A DNA stretch of 62,317 bases, filler included, from Circinaria calcarea (taxonomy: Eukaryota): NCBI GenBank assembly GCA_051942165.1. It is 9 parts of 9 records of this genome, joined end to end, with 100 filler letters (N's around TTAATTAATTAA, not from the genome) between each part and the next. Parts side by side here need not be neighbours in the genome. Positions count along the whole stretch, not along the records: positions 6,959 to 13,799 come from JAVECS010001475.1; 8 more parts are not named here. One strand, written 5' to 3'. The notes beneath the pieces were generated by a model, which did not search any database, was not told where the DNA came from, and saw only the letters and a list, made by a program, of their open reading frames with translations. A program made the position numbers and the translations under genes. Below are positions 3,290 through 14,629 of the stretch, piece by piece; position 1 is the stretch's first letter, and each line of letters opens with the position of its first letter.

Positions 3290-3770
3290 AGAATCACCAT
3301 GGTAGATACTGTTTTGCTCGCCTAGCTTTAGCATGTCCATTGAAGAAAACGCTATGACAGTTACAAATACTTGGTGCGAGCAATGTGAGATTTGATTCGT
3401 ACGTGAAGATATACATTGATATGAGGGTTGCGAATACAAATCACTATTAGACTACACAATATGGAACGCAGGATAGCAGGCATTAGAGTCACAGGAGGTT
3501 TTAAACTGTACCCTTGTGGATGAAAACATGGGTGATTCCTGGCAGACGGAGAAGACTCACGCGCCTAATCGAGAAGTTGTACTTGAATCAACGTGCAATT
3601 GCAGATGTGCCTATACTGACGATGATTGACTTGAGACGAAAGCCACGTCTCTGCCTTGCCCATGTCCGTATGTATGATCTCTTCTTCTACTTCCCCGCCA
3701 GCTTTACGTTACACGAGGCATCTTAACACCAGTAGCAATGGGTTCCTTCTGTTCCGTAATTGTGCCGGAT

Positions 3771-4213
3771 TCATTCGTAGTCGCTCTTGAGTTTATTGTA
3801 CAGCTCGACGTATTTTTTCTGTGCTTCAGCGGGCGTAACCCCAGCGTCGTTAACCTTCTTCCAGGCATCGTACTTTGGTTTTGCCTATTACCATACCATC
3901 AGGAACTCGTACTAGCAGGTATTCAATGGACTCTTTTGATTGAAAGTGTACGACAGAAAGAGTAAAAGGGGACGAACGAATATTTGGTATCTGGTTGGTA
4001 TAGGCACTTTATCGATGGGCGGGTCTTGTTTTCCTTGCTTGAAGTAGGAATAGAGCTAATTGAAAATCAACTAATCAGAATATATCTAGGATGCCAGGTG
4101 TGCTAGAATTAAGCACATTGGTGGCTCACCTGAAGTTTGATATCGTTCGATGGCTCCTTCGAAAACTTTGCAACCGCAGCTGCAGCTTTCTCGAACTCGG
4201 ATGACGTAGGCAT
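3771..4213 (-). CDS. ACB1: Acyl-CoA-binding protein (3 exons, not in ORF track)
   Basis: Manual splicing: MPTSSEFEKAAAAVAKFSKEPSNDIKLQ / LYSYFKQGKQDPPIDKVPIPTRYQIF / AKPKYDAWKKVNDAGVTPAEAQKKYVELYNKLKSDYE*. Contains the ACBP motifs LYxxFKQ, KYDAW and A-x-x-x-Y-V-E-L. Confidence 0.85.
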
Positions 4214-4495
4214 AGCTGAGGCAGTATACAGTGAAGAAGTTGTTCACCTAGAAAGAAGCCGTATTCACAGGTATAGAGAGAAGTAAGAAGTAATGGAATG
4301 AGGACTTTGTTTTAAGTGTCGAAATTGGTGGGGTAAGCTTGGCGAGGCGCAGTTTCGGGAAGATGCTGCTTAGTCATGCTCTCTAAAATGACGCCACATG
4401 AAGGTACTTCGTAGTCCGGGTATCTCCCAGTTCACTATCTGAAGGGTTGATGTGATTTGCATTAGGAGTCGCCTTTCAAATTCATTATAACAGTC

Positions 4496-6858: not shown

Positions 6859-6958
6859 NNNNNNNNNNNNNNNNNNNNNNNNNNNNNNNNNNNNNNNNNN
6901 NNTTAATTAATTAANNNNNNNNNNNNNNNNNNNNNNNNNNNNNNNNNNNNNNNNNNNN
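6859..6958. other. Artificial contig spacer N44-TTAATTAATTAA-N44 (also at 13800-13899, 20739-20838, 27673-27772, 34606-34705, 41538-41637, 48470-48569, 55394-55493)
   Basis: Identical 100-nt linker with stops in all six frames. Contig lengths fall or stay equal along the window (6858, 6841, 6839, 6834, 6833, 6832, 6832, 6824, 6824). Confidence 0.98.
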
Positions 6959-7394
6959 CTAGAAAAGGGTTTCCTGCGCCCACGGAATAAAAGAACTGTG
7001 GGAGGGAGGGGGAGGTGGAAGCCCGTGGCATGGGGTCGGAATGGTGTTAGGGTATAAGGAGGTGAAAGGGTACGGTTGAGGGTGCAGGACTCGAGGAGAA
7101 AAAGGGAGCGGTGAAAGTGTTGGAGGGAAAACGGAGAATGGAAAAAGAAGAGAATGGAAAAAGAAGAGAAAAAGGATAATTCTGAGCTTAGAACTCAGGG
7201 CTGGCAAAAGTATAGGGAGGGTTAAAGATTTTGAAAATTCGAAAATTCCCATTCCCTCCCGCCTTTTTATTTCTTGTTTTGTCGGTATTTTATCCAATCG
7301 CCCCGCTCTTCCTCCCCTTTTTTTGGTGGTTGTTACCTATCCAATCTCCATGTCAGAAATCTAACCCCTGGAATTAGAAATAGCCCTGGCGCAG

Positions 7395-7527
7395 TGTCAC
7401 GGGAGCTCATGCATCATGGAAATAGTGAGTAGGATTGCCTCCCTCTATCCATTACACGAAAAGAAGCTTTGAAAGCCCAAAGCCCCTTGGTTAGCTAGCG
7501 AGCTCCGTTCCTTCCTTTCCCCTAACA
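7395..7527. mobile_element. Putative short solo-LTR-like insertion
   Basis: 133 bp bounded by TGTCAC... and ...CTAACA (TG..CA termini), flanked by a near-identical 5-bp duplication CGCAG / TGCAG. Confidence 0.4.
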
Positions 7528-7575
7528 TGCAGGTTATGAGTCTTTTGAACCAGGGCTCAGTTTTTCTCCAGACTA

Positions 7576-9261
7576 TCAGTCGGTCTCGGATCCCGAAGAG
7601 CTCTGGCGATACGCAATCCTCAAGTGCTTAATCGGGTACTGGCCGACGACCTGCTGGTAGTGCAGATCGGTCAGTAAGGCATACCTCTGGCGGCGAATGA
7701 TCCTGGAAAGGATGTAAGGTCCGTCCCACGTTGAGGTCATCTTTTTAAACCCCTTATCGTCGGCGACTTTGAGGCGTTTGACGAATACAGTGTCCCTCTC
7801 TTTTGGATTAATTAGCTTGGGGCCTTTGCGAAAGATCGTGCTGCTTGGTTGACGGTTCTGATCCCTGACTGCGGTTACGTTCTGTTTGAGGCCGGGAGAA
7901 GGAATGTCGACAGTTAAGCTTGGTTGCGGTTGAGTTTGAGGGTTAGAGGCGGACTGGGCAGCATAAAGCACAGCCTCTGAAGATTCTTTCTGTGGGGTTA
8001 TTTGCATATCCGATTCGTCACTCATAGAAGGATCGCTTGATAGCTGCGCCTTGGAATGCCACTCAGAGAGCCCGACGGTGGGAGCTCCAGTCAAGGGGGC
8101 TAGTAACTCCTGCCTTTCTCGAACTTGCTGTTTAATCTGCATGAATCGATTAATCGCGGCGATCATTCCTTGAGAACCCTGGCGCAGGCCACCCCAGCGG
8201 ATGGTTTGAGCTTTTGGTAAATGATGTCTCATGAATCTACTCCAGTTTTCTGCAAGCAAAATGATATCATCTTCATTCGGAGTGCAATCAAATAAAACAC
8301 GCAGTTCAAGTGAGACATGATTAGTCGCCGGCCAATGGGGAACTTGTTGCTCCTTAGCAGCTTGGCTTCCATTCTTGGGCAGCGGTGCAAGAAAGATTCT
8401 TGCAACCGATAGCCCATAGGGCTCATATAACAATGGGCTCTGGCTTTTGGGCCACTTTGGTGCTTGAATAATCCTGGTGCGGAGTTGCTGCGTATTAAAG
8501 CCATTCTTGCACTCCTTAGCCAATTTCCTAAGTGCCCAAATCAGGCATGAGGTAAAGGAGCTCGGCCCTGGAATCGAAGTTAGAGGTCCTAGATGATTGG
8601 GTGATAAGAATTCATACGATCGCGTCGAAAGATGCGGGTTCCGAGCGAGGTGACTAGCGAAGCAGCAGTCAAAGATAACAAATACGTCGGAACGAGCGCT
8701 TTGGAGTTGGCCCTCCATCAGGTTCCAAGTGACTTCAATATCTTCAAGCCTTTGGTCATCTGGGTCCCTTTTCCTGAAACCTTAGAATTAGCTTGATATC
8801 TCAGCTTCAGAAGCTCTTGCAGTTTTACCCAATTAGTTTAAGTTGACCGGGTGTATTCCCTGGCATTCCATGTCCCGCATAATAAACTATAAGCAGACTG
8901 CTTTGTCCATCCTGGTCCAATAGAAACTGCGCCATCTTGAAGTTGACCTGATGCTGGGGAGCCTTTTCTCTGCCGATGACCAATCTCGAGACCGTGTAGT
9001 TGTATTTTCGTTGGAATACCTTTTGTAACTTCTTCACCTATGAGACTTTAGTCTTTGCTTGAAAGCCACGAGCGAGGAGCCCACCTCCTCATCGCATTGA
9101 AGATCATCGAGTTCGTCCGCCCACGAGATAAGTAGTACAGCTACATTTTGATATGGCCCTGCAAATTTGGGATCGTTCTGCATAATCTTATTCCATCTGG
9201 TTTGAAGTAAAGAGTCAGTCTGTTCTAGTGGAGAAAGAGGTACTTGAGTTGACTCTGCCAT
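7576..9261 (-). CDS. Caspase-fold (clan CD, C14-like) protease-domain protein with C-terminal integrase-CTD-like tail
   Basis: 3 exons (introns 9038-9084 and about 8774-8828). Motifs VAVLLISW, LLIVYYAGHG (His), DVFVIFDCCFAS (Cys), PGPSSFTSCLIWAL. The C-terminus contains TVFVK...KMTSTWDGPYILSRI...YALLTDL...IKHLRIAY. Confidence 0.8.
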
Positions 9262-9933
9262 AATGGCTGCTGGAGGTAGAACGCTCTTCTCGCCGGTTGA
9301 ATTAAATATTTCTCCACAGAGTTGAATATTTAGTCACCTCATGGGGTAATGGTGGCTTAGACAACATAGCCGCCTTGAAGTTCCCTTTTAAACCAAGGTG
9401 GAAGCTCTTCTCGGCAAGGCTGAAGGAAAGATAATCTCTTGCTTCAACGAAGCCCCCTTCTCTTATCACGTCAGAGAGGCGGAGTGGCCAGATGTTTTGT
9501 TAGGTGCATTGGTCCAAAAGGAATATATCCAGATTATTCCACGCAGCCAGCGTAAATGAGAACCTGAGGTTATTTTTAAGGTTGATTCGCCGGAGAACCA
9601 GAAAGATCTAGCCTTAGCATACCTTCCTAATCAGGCTTTATAGCCTGCAGATGTTGTGCAACCACACTACACCACCAAAGTCAAAAATCTCAGCCTCACA
9701 ATTGTCCGCTTAAGAAGCATTGAGGAAGCCTGAGGGCATTTACTCTGTCCTGTTGTTGCGAAGGTACAGACACCTCAACGACACACCAGTACTTTTTTGG
9801 GAGATTTGAACTCTCTGGATGTAGGGTTCAGCTCGCATCACAAGTATTTCGTCCCCTCGACTCCAATATTTCTTAACAGTCAAAGATACCTGGAATACGG
9901 CTGAGGTTGAATTCATTACCATATTCGGAGGAC

Positions 9934-10321
9934 ATGTCTTCAAATCCTTCGAACGATGTAAGACAACCAGACCCCTTAATGTTCCATCGAGTAATGTATT
10001 ACATTTAGCCGCGTCCCGACTCTCGTACGTATTACGCGGGATCATCAGCTCTCAACGTATGCAATCGTCACTAGGCAATCCTATTAAAGTCAGTGTTGTT
10101 TACTAACATTCTAATAGCTCGAGGCAAAATATGACAGGGGAGATCACGTTTGGTGGACGAAACCTGGGGTCACTGGGGTCTTTCCAGTTTCGATCGTTGA
10201 CGTCATTTGGAATGATAGCATACGGGGCTATACATACAAGATCTCGTATCATGGCGCCCTACGAAACAATGGAAACCCCGTGCCCGAAGACCAATTGGAG
10301 CCAGCAAGTGAAAGGACTTGA
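9934..10321 (+). CDS. Small 91-aa protein with predicted SH3/Tudor-like beta-barrel (3 exons, not in ORF track)
   Basis: Exons 9934-9957, 10009-10056 and 10118-10321. Introns GTAAGA..TAG and GTATGC..CTAAC..TAG are both phase 0. Product: MSSNPSNDPRPDSRTYYAGSSALNLEAKYDRGDHVWWTKPGVTGVFPVSIVDVIWNDSIRGYTYKISYHGALRNNGNPVPEDQLEPASERT*. Confidence 0.65.
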
Positions 10322-11745
10322 AGGTGAGAAAACGAAGGCAAAGTATTGGAGCCCTAGGCTGATAAAGTAAGGCGAAGTGCATACACAGCACTAATCGCTT
10401 ATTGGTCGGTTTTCTATGTAGCCGGCGTTTTCGAGGGTGGTGAACAGCTAGGTATCATAAGGAAAAGGCTTGCAATATCAAGGAGTTGGATATAAGGCCT
10501 TAAACTGCTGGGATAGCCAGGCTTGGGGACGTCCGGGTTTTGCAGCAGGTTATTCGCGATGTCCGGTCGAGGGGGTACATCTGCGATTGCGAGTGGCATC
10601 CTAAATACCTCAGGTGTAGATTCTCGACTCCAGGCAACCACTACCCTTGCAAGTGATGTAAATGTATGTACTCAAATATGAATCCCAGGCCAATAGCTAG
10701 TCCTGCCCGTTGGTAGCCTGGCTGGAGTAGCGAACGTCTCACTTATATGAACTCGGTCAATCCCTATTCTTATCCATGTTTAGCCCCACACACTGCAGTA
10801 GTACTTGAGACGGGATGGAAAAGGCGGAGCTGAGGTCCCGACATCTACTTCATAGGCTTGTGGCTGTGAGGGTTGACTGGATAATATCAGTTCTAGTCCT
10901 AGGCATGACGGTAATGGCAGAAACCTAAGGTGCTTTATGGCCAGACAGAGTTAGTGTTGTAGGCCAATCATATCTGCACCGCGATTCCTCTGCCAGCCTG
11001 ATGACCTGGTGTGATAAGATACAAACTAGTTGGGCATCCGTGCGTCAGCTAGGTTCCCAGAGAGCATATTACGATTGCCCTCGATATCTGTAATCCCTAC
11101 TTACATACTGCGCCCGATTCGTACTTACCTGTACACTATCCCATCCCTGCCAAACGCTTTTTTCCCTTACACTAACAGCGCCTATCATCATCTCCAATTC
11201 TCTGAGACTGTTGAAGCACTGGGCGTGATTTCACGTAAGGGTAAGGATCAACCCAAGACCTCAGTTGTAGCTTCGGCAAGGCTCAATGCGGAAGGGTTCC
11301 GTGTTGTTAATTGCGTGATCTGAATTCTTTTTTTTGCGACAGCCTCAAAGCCCCGGATCAAAGCGTGTCATGTAGGATAATTGTATACGCATAGAAAGAT
11401 TTACTCGTGTTCGAAAGAACATATAATGTAATCGGTGAAGTATTACCAAGCTTTGTTCAACTTATAATTTATAAAATGAACGGCCAAGAGTGAAAACCGA
11501 TATATCTGATGTTATACCGCTTGACGCGCGTACTTCAGCCGGCCACCGAGCTGGAGAAAGGCTATAAGGCAGGAAGCTGACACTTAAGTGGGCCTAAAAT
11601 ATTGCATTCCACAACAAGGCGGGCAAGACAGTACCATTGGCACAAGGCTAAGAAATGGAATAAACATAAAGGACTGGGAAAGCCACCGAGAAATACCCTG
11701 TTGCTCCTCGATTTGATAGTATTCAGATGGGAATTCAGAAATACA

Positions 11746-13112
11746 ATGGAGCCAATACTATATTCGTCAACTTGCCCAAACTCTTTTGTTGCGGATTGCA
11801 TGGAAAAAGGTCAAATTTGTCATATTGAGGGCTCTCCGGATCAGTCGCAGGTCCTACCAAATCTAATTCCACCTTCCAATGCCTCTACTGTTTCAACTTG
11901 CGGTATTTCTAAATTATGTTAGGGTTCAAATCCGATATCCGGGAAATCTGCTGATATTGGAGCTTAGGGCTGTCCAGACTGCTTCGACTTTTAAAAACAC
12001 AACGGACTGCGAAAGATATTGATTTTGGGACTATACAGAGATCAAGTTGGCAATCCCCCCTAGGTCTTCGACAGAGATGTAAGTACTGATTACATTCAGT
12101 CGATGAATGCCCCCAGGGTTTCCCAAGATTCGCCGCTTTCCAAGACAGCGACGAAAACTTCATGATGTACCGTAAATTCGGATTTCTCCGCTCACGGCTA
12201 CTACTGTACAAACAAGATGAGCTAGGAGCTTTGGAGAAGCAGCTTGATGCCATGGACCAGCATGATTCTGTACACCGACGAAAATGCCTAATGGCAAGGG
12301 ATCTAGACGACGCTCGGAAGCCGCAGCTCCGCAAGCAACTTCTCGAGTGTATCGAGCAGAAACTTTACAGTTATGGTCTCTACCACTCCCTCTCTCGGAT
12401 TTCCGTTCCTTCTTCCACTGATTTGATTCCGTGCTGACCATGAGAAGATCGACTAGTAATGAAGACTCGACAGTTCTTGGAGATGAACCGCCCCTCAACG
12501 CGAGATTACAACAGCGTTAAGAGCTACCTGTGGACCAAGAAACCCTTCTTCAAGGATGGACTCCAGTTTATTCGCCGCAAGGAAGATTTCATAACAATCC
12601 GCAAAGGGCGAGACAACGCTTGGTTCGACGGTTTCTTTGAGGATATCCTGAAACTTATTCCTTGTCGGGCAATTGACGTGCGTTTTGTATCTTGCCCCAC
12701 AAACTCAATATCACTTACATCTTGATCCAGTACCTTTTCTGCAGCAAAGAGAAACGCGCCAAGTCTACGGACCCAGATCTCAAACCCTATTCCAAAGACA
12801 GGATAGACCGCTTTATAGGTCTGGTGCACGGCATGTTAGTTCTCCTCTTGCTTCTGCTTCCGGTCTATATGCTTTACAAACTCAGTCGGAGAGGTGATAT
12901 GACATCGGTGTCTGTGGGTGTGATGTTGGTGTTCACCCTTGCCTTCGCGCTTGTGCTCTCCCTTTTCACCAGGGCCAAAAGTCACGAGATCCTGGCTGCA
13001 TGTGCAGCGTGAGTAACATCTCTATTGTATCTCTAAGAACTTAAACTAAGGGAATCTCTACAGTTACTGTGCTGTCATGGTGGTTTTTATTGGAAATCTG
13101 AAAGGCACATAG
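11746..13112 (+). CDS. DUF6594-family membrane protein (multi-exon; start tentative)
   Basis: DECPQGFPRFAAFQDSDENFMMYRKFGFLRSRLLLYKQDELGALEKQL, LEMNRPSTRDYNSV, three C-terminal hydrophobic helices and terminal HEILAACAAYCAVMVVFIG, all typical of DUF6594. Confidence 0.82.
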
Positions 13113-13540
13113 TAATTCAATTTTCCCTAAAAAAATCAACAAAAGTGTTATACGAGTATTTGCGATAGGAATTTGAATAGGGAAAACGTGGATTTACGGA
13201 CCTAGAATACAGGAATGTGTGAAAGGGGGGAGTGAAATGGAAATTGACTCAAGGCTTAAAAACGCGTACTTGGAGAGATGAGAAATTGAAAATTTGAGCT
13301 ATCTCGGATTGGTTTTACTCTTTCCCCCTAATAGGAAACTCGGTAATGTGGAAAAGATACTATATACAATGAGAATCACGGCTGTTGGAAATTCACTCTG
13401 GAACCCGATTAGACTTAGCGGCGTATTGCCTTCCATACCATAAAAGGCGAGCACACACACATAGAAATTCAAGCAACCTTGAAATCATGCATGTCCATAA
13501 GCCCTTCGTTCAACAACCATTTCCAACAGTCATCACCTCA

Positions 13541-13702
13541 TTACATTATCTTCCGTGAACGAAGCTTCACATTCAACGCCGACTTATCCCACAGCATAAA
13601 CACCTTCTGCTCGTTCCAGTTCGCCGACTCAGGGCATAATTCCACGTCGAAATTCCAGAGCATGCGCGCGAGGATGGAGCGCATTTCGGCCCAGGCAAGG
13701 TT
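13541..13702 (-). CDS. Cytochrome P450, last exon only (rest beyond contig end)
   Basis: After a CAG acceptor: NLAWAEMRSILARMLWNFDVELCPESANWNEQKVFMLWDKSALNVKL...*, the region that follows the heme Cys in fungal CYPs. Confidence 0.8.
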   Translation of the reverse strand, partial: NLAWAEMRSILARMLWNFDVELCPESANWNEQKVFMLWDKSALNVKLRSRKIM

Positions 13703-14629
13703 CTGTGATGTGATGAAAGGCGAGAGTGTCAGTCAAAGATGGTGGGTATGGTTTTTGTTGAGGGTATTTGGTGGGGTGGAGGAAGTATGGAAGGGGAATN
13801 NNNNNNNNNNNNNNNNNNNNNNNNNNNNNNNNNNNNNNNNNNNTTAATTAATTAANNNNNNNNNNNNNNNNNNNNNNNNNNNNNNNNNNNNNNNNNNNNC
13901 TACTACACGACCTATTGGTGGAACCACTCACTTTTGTATTGAAGGTTGTCTGACTAGCTACGCTCTGCTGGCAGAGATATACTTCTGCCACTATTACGCT
14001 AAGCCCTATTGGGTGTATGCTATGACTATAGTCATAACTATTGTCATAACAGTTAGCTATTAGGAATGCACCGTATTTTAACTCTTGGCTGTTATTCCAA
14101 GATTGTTGGCTGGTAATTCGCCCACCGCTTCCCTTCCTTTTCTTTTCCTTTCCTTTCCTTTCATTCTTCAATCTTTAGTACCTTCCCCTCCCTTCCCCTC
14201 TCCTCTCCCACCCCCTGCTCGTGGTTTGTTATACGTTGTCCCTCACTGATCTGGGCTGGGCTGGTTGGTTGGTTATAGTCATGGTGATGGTGATGAGTAA
14301 TAATGGGTCATGATTGATAATGAAGAAAATGTCCTGTCTAGCTTAAAGGCACGGATTAATGAGAAAAGGAAAGGGGGAAAGGACAGAGGACAGAGGACAG
14401 TGTACTCAGGGGGATGGAGGAGATGCAGTTGAGAGTTAGAGCTAGAGCCTAGACTTTCTAGTTTTCTGAAGTTCATGTATCGAGCATGTTCCGTCATACA
14501 CCCCTCTTCCCCCTCCCTTTTTAGGACAGCCCTTCCTTCATCCGTCATCTATAAACTTTCCAGCCATGAGTAGCAAACCAACTACGCCTGCACTCCACCC
14601 CTTCCCATTCCCATCCACCACTCCTCGTC

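Follow-up and report, generated by a model that had tools for sequence, protein, structure and literature searches.

The 62,317-base stretch of Circinaria calcarea DNA analysed here (assembly GCA_051942165.1; hereafter the window) contains, on a single contig at positions 6959-13799, three genes, namely a caspase-type protease gene (P), a small gene for a barrel-like protein (s) and a gene for a DUF6594 membrane protein (D). An earlier sequence-only reading had described these genes as a trio on one contig and had proposed a regulated cell-death or immunity module, and we recovered exon models of all three at the places it gave. C. calcarea is a lichen-forming Lecanoromycete, and its window carries a copy of a three-gene module that is conserved among filamentous ascomycetes. 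The window consists of approximately nine contigs of ~6.8 kb each, joined by spacers made of paired 44-N runs flanking a 12-base tag (6859-6958, 13800-13899 and then every ~6.9 kb), so that gene context never extends beyond ~6.8 kb. The contig of the trio is 6,841 nucleotides (nt) long with N spacers at both ends; no repeats were found in it, and no matches to P, s or D were found in the other eight contigs of the window.

The protease, small barrel and DUF6594 genes

The protease gene lies on the minus strand at 7576-9261, with coding exons at 9261-9085, 9037-8829 and 8773-7576 that specify 527 amino acids (aa) plus the stop codon, and this splice model agrees letter for letter with P0001, a 527-aa NCBI hypothetical protein from a Circinaria calcarea metagenome-assembled genome. 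The clan-CD assignment made from the sequence alone was upheld, as P0001 matches Pfam Peptidase_C14 (PF00656) with 26.1 bits at a cut-off of 21.4 and carries YYAGHG, its His motif, in exon 2 and IFDCC, its Cys motif, in exon 3; no other Pfam domain in P0001 scored above threshold. In an alignment of P0001 with 13 homologues, columns I162, F163, D164, C165 and C166 are invariant in 14/14 sequences, and when the 69 loci of the survey described below were scanned for simple motifs, most had motifs of the YYAGHG and FDCC types, several of the misses being short matches or cases with an intron within the Cys motif. Among the homologues, the PF00656 scores were 36.2 bits for P0003, 25.8 bits for P0014 and 13 bits (below the cut-off) for P0002, and P0009 gave no PF00656 match. 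In metacaspases, an Asp stands two positions ahead of the catalytic Cys and cleavage occurs after Arg or Lys; P also has an Asp two residues ahead of its catalytic Cys. Judged by these sequence features, P is a metacaspase-like clan-CD protease with an intact His/Cys dyad and is apparently active.

P thus shares with the metacaspases and other Peptidase_C14 proteins a Pfam match above cut-off and the His-Gly and Cys motifs in canonical order, but differs from them in its low score (26 bits), in ~70 aa of additional conserved sequence downstream of the catalytic domain and in its variable tails. No CHAT match at E up to 1 was obtained with Pfam for P0001, P0002, P0003, P0009 or P0014, a PDB sequence search with the protease profile gave no relevant match, and PADLOC returned marginal matches only, the best being to a caspase model for P0003 (E 1e-3). 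A hydrophobic C-terminal stretch, possibly a tail anchor, is present in P0006-P0011 and P0014 and at loci L001, L002, L014, L028, L031 and L041, a Kyte-Doolittle mean above 1.6 over 19 residues being reached only at L028 and L031; such tails in some P homologues would fit with action at the membrane.

The small gene s occupies 9934-10321 on the plus strand and is transcribed divergently from P, as the sequence-only reading had stated. It starts with the ATG at 9934 in an eight-codon exon 1 (9934-9957), which is followed by a GTAAGA donor, an intron (9958-10117) with a TACTAAC branch site and an AG acceptor, and a 67-codon exon 2 (10118-10321) ending in the stop codon at 10319-10321. The resulting protein has ~75 aa, and the length of 91 aa given previously was not reproduced. 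An AlphaFold2 model of s, for which 27 of 33 distinct s sequences were aligned after removal of near-duplicates and fragments, was obtained with a pLDDT of 94.3 and a pTM of 0.79. When this model was compared with the PDB by Foldseek, chromo-barrel and Tudor domains ranked on top, with MRG15 (2f5k) as the best match (TM-score 0.73, E 2e-3, 62 columns), and VIA-align likewise listed MRG15 (Z 8.4, root-mean-square deviation 2.3, 62 aligned), a PWWP domain (Z 8.3) and the 53BP1 Tudor domain (3lgf; Z 8.2). The Tudor domain of LBR and R67 DHFR were also among the fold matches, and ribosomal, KOW and other SH3-like barrels followed at Z 6-7, together with the protease specificity factor 5ycq (Z 6.7). 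The SH3/Tudor-like character proposed for s was therefore borne out, and with high confidence the protein is predicted to be a small five-stranded SH3-like barrel of the chromo-barrel/Tudor type; a Z near 8 is a level at which a common arrangement is possible, and should be read here as a common small barrel only.

Although s has the same small five-stranded barrel as the Royal-family domains of MRG15 (2f5k) and 53BP1 (3lgf), it differs from them in having no sequence-family match and in being a stand-alone, single-domain protein (65-95 aa across the family) whose gene adjoins those of a protease and a membrane protein. None of six s proteins matched Chromo, Tudor, MRG or similar Pfam families at E up to 10, and by sequence s appears to belong to no Pfam family. 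No homologues of s were found by a word-index protein search, and ESM Atlas offered only small phage or bacterial barrel clusters at 0.91-0.92, with recognition below threshold, and hence no lead. Eleven matches from an exhaustive HMMER search were rejected, these being long, repeat-rich proteins (including two with SH3 repeats) whose scores were the sum of weak repeats. As no protein identical to s or D surfaced among the protein searches, both genes seem to be unannotated in the source record.

The reality of s is indicated by several features of its family. Immediately ahead of the s domain many loci share what would be a CAG or TAG acceptor (CAG being read as Gln, and TAG standing at this place in the window), which suggests a conserved intron position, and plausible ATG first exons with canonical donors are found upstream of the domain in most loci. 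In the clade in which s lies upstream of the protease, the candidate first exon encodes a conserved peptide with GRADYVP in it (L025:8883-8948, L042:2288-2356 and L051:7022-7096). The s reading frames reach a stop 0-10 codons past the domain in all loci, the alignment shows conserved aromatic columns, and dN/dS values of 0.2-0.55 were obtained for the five close pairs with enough changes, although these are small numbers. The confident fold, the acceptor, the first exons, the frame ends and dN/dS together indicate that s is a real protein, and its family seems to have been overlooked by annotation pipelines. A complex prediction for s and the soluble part of D from L025, run without alignments, gave a score of 0.00.

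The conserved coding part of D lies on the plus strand at 12100-13112, in exons 12100-12375, 12445-12677, 12731-13008 and 13064-13112 with the stop codon at 13110-13112. Its assignment to DUF6594 was confirmed by matches of the three large exons to PF20237 (E 3e-20, 1e-7 and 2e-17; 73.5, 32.4 and 64.3 bits at a cut-off of 30), which span profile positions 1-85, 88-154 and 156-232 of 238, and the exons align along their length with six homologues in tblastn. The structure was modelled on the homologue P0028, which is 55% identical to the first D exon of the window, using a 77-row alignment. This model is all-helical (pLDDT 73.9), with two long N-terminal helices separated by a lower-confidence linker, and its three C-terminal helices at 242-333 are consistent with transmembrane (TM) segments, in line with the three C-terminal TM helices claimed earlier. 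D is thus predicted to comprise a helical N-terminal part followed by three C-terminal TM helices. An L-x-x-R motif is present in the linker in 21/24 linked D genes and falls within the lower-confidence stretch that joins the two long helices of the model; in the window it ends in MAR and is followed by DLDD.

No relatives of the D fold were found outside DUF6594, as the best Foldseek match in the PDB had an E of 0.37, the wide VIA-align search gave only generic helical matches (Z up to 9.2) and ESM Atlas gave only DUF6594 clusters, mainly from Ascomycota. There was no gasdermin match in the three D exons (Pfam, E up to 1), and the P0028 model is wholly helical. A search of the full-text literature for DUF6594, PF20237 and IPR046529 found no paper, subscription journals lying outside its coverage.

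Linkage of the three genes across loci

The sequence-only reading had itself named the lack of conserved linkage across species as an outcome that would speak against it. We examined this from the protease side, using the alignment of P0001 and its 13 homologues to scan metagenome contigs and retaining 10-kb flanks, which yielded 69 loci and 702 kb of sequence; loci with protease DNA at least 90% identical were merged into 46 clusters. A profile of six DUF6594 proteins, run over all six-frame open reading frames (ORFs), found D in 38/69 loci. With the 67-aa s exon as query, tblastn found s at L002 (E 7e-7), at L022 (E 4e-5) and in three weaker cases, all five directly adjoining D, and four rounds of profile search extended this to 39/69 loci. 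Of the 46 clusters, 24 have both D and s, and D and s each occur in 27; the other two are missing together from 16, of which 11 have a flank of less than ~3.1 kb on each side. Twenty clusters include a single locus flanked on each side by 3.7 kb or more, and among these D was found in 19/20 and s in 18/20.

A near/far control was carried out with one representative per cluster, comparing sequence within 4.5 kb of P (266 kb) with that beyond (207 kb). D occurred 26 times near P and once far from it, i.e. 9.8 vs 0.48 per 100 kb or an approximately 20-fold enrichment (binomial p 4e-6), and s occurred 27 times near and never far (binomial p 2e-7). The only unlinked D seen in the 702 kb is a second DUF6594 copy at L002:3522-4677, which lies 5.3 kb from the protease and has neither an s gene nor, as read at 3522-4313, the linker L-x-x-R. 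Across the 24 trios, identity averages 33% in P, 25% in s and 47% in D, and the pairwise distances of the three are correlated by the Mantel test (r 0.62-0.76, p 5e-4).

Complete arrangements of five kinds were observed, with arrowheads for the strand: nine P>s>D>, eight D<s<P> (the type found in the window), three s>D>P>, three D<s>P> and one P>D<s<. In every arrangement s adjoins D, mostly just upstream on the same strand, and P is never central. The three genes have been kept within ~4 kb while their order and strand were rearranged at least five times. To survey the outer flanks, ORFs of 200 aa or longer were collected from 26 representative loci, and 100 of the 153 were compared with Pfam; set aside were ORFs that overlap P or D, the L057 ORFs and part of the L061 ORFs. 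These flanks vary, including a Brr2-like spliceosomal helicase, GCN1, PEX6, SHMT, TAF6, RPN6, a polyketide synthase and others, with one HET, one NB-ARC and some ankyrin genes as immune-type neighbours. No fourth recurrent family appeared among the 100 flank ORFs, nor among 28 of 45 ORFs from eight loci that lack D, and no transposase was seen in the scanned flanks. As the outer flanks are heterogeneous and no fourth family recurs, the trio itself forms the conserved unit.

Because this linkage is so strongly conserved across loci, we regard P, D and the small, binding-type barrel s as a module under selection and not as a chance neighbourhood, and that they work together as a functional module is very probable. 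Through the trio, DUF6594 gains genomic partners for the first time, namely a caspase-type protease that is apparently active and a family of small proteins, and fungi gain a further, new type of gene cluster linked to a caspase-like protease.

Possible function of the module

Caspase-type and other proteases are known to be encoded beside membrane-acting proteins in fungi. In Clave et al. 2022 (PMC8851545), a gasdermin (HET-Q1-like) gene is kept beside a HET-Q2-like protease gene in many fungi, approximately one-fifth of the gasdermin-linked proteases are caspase-related, and most of the proteases carry repeat or NLR-type sensor parts. NLR/amyloid effector clusters such as nwd2/het-S are compact and include a membrane-acting partner (PMC12881547), and the clusters described in the portions available of PMC8851545, PMC12881547 and PMC10197012 are only those of gasdermin with an S8 or CHAT protease and those of the NLR/amyloid type. 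The trio resembles the gasdermin clusters in that a membrane-protein gene and a protease gene are kept together with a two- or three-gene cluster logic, and it resembles the nwd2/het-S type in being a compact fungal cluster with what would be a membrane-acting partner. The conserved clustering of a protease with a membrane partner, one mark of fungal protease/effector cell-death clusters, was found here. In contrast with the gasdermin clusters, the partner is an all-helical DUF6594 protein with three predicted TM helices, P is a plain Peptidase_C14 protein with no CHAT, WD40/TPR/ANK or NLR part, and a third, small barrel gene belongs to the set; unlike the nwd2/het-S type, the conserved P-s-D set includes no NLR. 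Of the module proposed from the sequence alone, the three-gene linkage and the fold call have thus stood, whereas its functional part is an analogy with clusters such as those in PMC8851545.

The reading that we favour, tentatively and at slightly less than an even chance, is a module in which P cuts D, s is regulatory and a membrane activity is switched. P, s and the N-terminal domain of D would all face the cytosol, since no N-terminal hydrophobic signal was seen by eye in any of the three proteins. P would then cut D in the exposed linker between its helices (s is another possible target), the candidate site being the conserved Arg of L-x-x-R (MAR↓DLDD in the window), and proteolytic action of P on one or other of these two partners is in our estimate almost as probable as not. 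As s is always encoded beside D, it may be a regulatory or specificity subunit that accompanies D. Cleavage would switch the membrane activity of D, and if the gasdermin/protease clusters of fungi and bacteria are taken as an analogy, the output could be membrane damage or regulated cell death. This output is the least supported step, and we consider cell death or immunity as the purpose of the module to be doubtful. A stronger version, in which DUF6594 proteins represent a novel kind of membrane executioner and the trio is a three-component, protease-gated death or immune switch working without gasdermin, NLR or amyloid, is unlikely; in it, P would cut the cytosolic linker of D and s would serve as a sensor or safety catch. 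If true, it would give a large fungal gene family its first function and fungi a second, independent caspase-type death pathway.

A number of observations weigh against this favoured reading. The close analogy with gasdermin systems is weakened because P lacks a sensor (no repeat, NLR/NOD or other sensor domain was detected with Pfam in P0001 and four homologues), because D is unlike known pore-formers (it has no Pfam match to a known pore-former or death effector) and because the flanks are ordinary, consisting mostly of housekeeping genes and not of immune-type islands. Chromo-barrel and Tudor folds are typical of chromatin readers, which points s away from a death switch. The Mantel correlation reflects joint descent and would be expected from shared descent alone, so it is not by itself a sign of co-adaptation, and the apparent contrast in L-x-x-R between linked and unlinked D genes hangs on a single unlinked copy. 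The statement of the sequence-only reading that no housekeeping gene lies between the three genes has little weight alone, since their contig is only 6,841 nt long. The linkage also has its misses, as among the 20 well-flanked clusters L057 has neither D nor s, and L026, which looks like a decayed cluster, has a truncated D (L026:8081-9117, matching profile positions 160-310 only) and no s despite 10-kb flanks; the L011 group is without s and D even with the flanks of its members combined. In the window itself, an in-frame TGA at 12087-12089 stands just ahead of the first conserved residues of D, and this copy of D may be damaged at its 5' end.

The same conserved trio would fit a membrane-anchored protease complex in which D is a scaffold or receptor and s an adaptor, and in which P cleaves third-party proteins while D is not a target. 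Some P homologues have a hydrophobic tail of their own, so membrane location may be the point, the protease specificity factor 5ycq is among the SH3-like matches of s, and housekeeping-type flanks suit a role in cellular maintenance, for example membrane-protein quality control or processing. Such maintenance machinery is usually single-copy and well conserved, however, whereas here the mean identities of P and s are as low as 33% and 25%, and several distinct trios carry one assembly prefix, JAABUS01 (L032, L053 and L061), which may or may not represent one genome; we therefore consider such a complex, and with it a quality-control or processing role, quite unlikely. The chromatin-reader matches of s (MRG15, PWWP and the Tudor domains of 53BP1 and LBR) would be more at home in a relay from membrane to nucleus, P releasing the N-terminal domain of D and/or s on a signal and s acting on chromatin, and the predicted topology of D, a cytosolic N-terminal domain followed by TM helices, fits this too. 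Nevertheless, Pfam places s in none of the Chromo, Tudor and MRG families and showed no DNA-binding or transcription-factor domain in D, and the SH3-like barrel is very common and has many other uses, as its ribosomal, KOW and R67 DHFR matches illustrate, which makes this relay improbable.

The three genes could also be linked without any direct interplay, either as co-regulated stress or developmental genes or as cargo of a mobile or selfish element. Their differing surroundings could mean that the block has moved, and one retroelement-type ORF (Integrase_H2C2) lies near a protease paralogue at L057. On the other hand, the trio contig is free of detected repeats, neither a transposase nor a fourth gene was found in the scanned flanks, and the adjacency of s and D through all five arrangements, together with the co-varying distances, suggests selection on the set, leaving this explanation distinctly improbable. 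That the genes are simply chance neighbours, with the small ORF spurious, might be entertained for a contig of only 6.8 kb and for an s without an annotated homologue in protein databases, but it is already contradicted by the recurrence of the trio in 24 independent clusters, by the near/far enrichment of D and s and by the confident fold and conserved intron position of s, and is hardly credible.

Further features of the loci

The 5' end of D was sought in a candidate region on the plus strand at 11727-12099, which has ATG exons at 11727, 11746, 11800 and 11879 and an acceptor AG at 12098-12099. A putative TACTGAT branch site at 12083-12089 precedes the conserved part of D, and the TGA at 12087-12089 may lie inside a lineage-specific 5' intron. 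Of 42 single-intron models with an upstream ATG, none had a strong donor (0/42), and the N-termini of homologous D proteins gave no detectable match upstream of 12090. A 21-nt GTAAGT...CAG 'intron' that would remove the TGA was rejected as too short. The spacer between s and D (10322-12099) is ~1.8 kb long here as compared with ~0.15-1.0 kb elsewhere and is without a repeat or convincing ORF; the 5' exon that D lacks could be concealed there, or the spacer could contain decayed sequence.

At the other end of the trio, P terminates in a tail of ~84 aa (7579-7830, minus strand), for which no relatives were found in Pfam or PDB sequences. It may resemble the C-terminal module of Ty3/gypsy integrases, a likeness for which Pfam, PDB and tblastn gave no support, and its interpretation as an s-like domain was rejected (hhalign probability 0.13). 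The tail is conserved only in the closest homologue, P0002, with 37% identity and 30 invariant columns, and in these two proteins it takes the place of the hydrophobic segment at the end of some other homologues.

In the lineage of L011, L012, L015 and L016, which has no s or D in the flanks available, an ORF of 816-889 aa that belongs to no Pfam family always stands ahead of the protease, and at L015 a PNP_UDP-domain ORF also lies ahead of it. At L057:9613-12316, where s and D are absent, two protease-like Cys motifs lie in tandem next to the gene for DNA polymerase epsilon; farther downstream are TPR and HET genes, and an ORF with GNAT/Integrase_H2C2 is close by.

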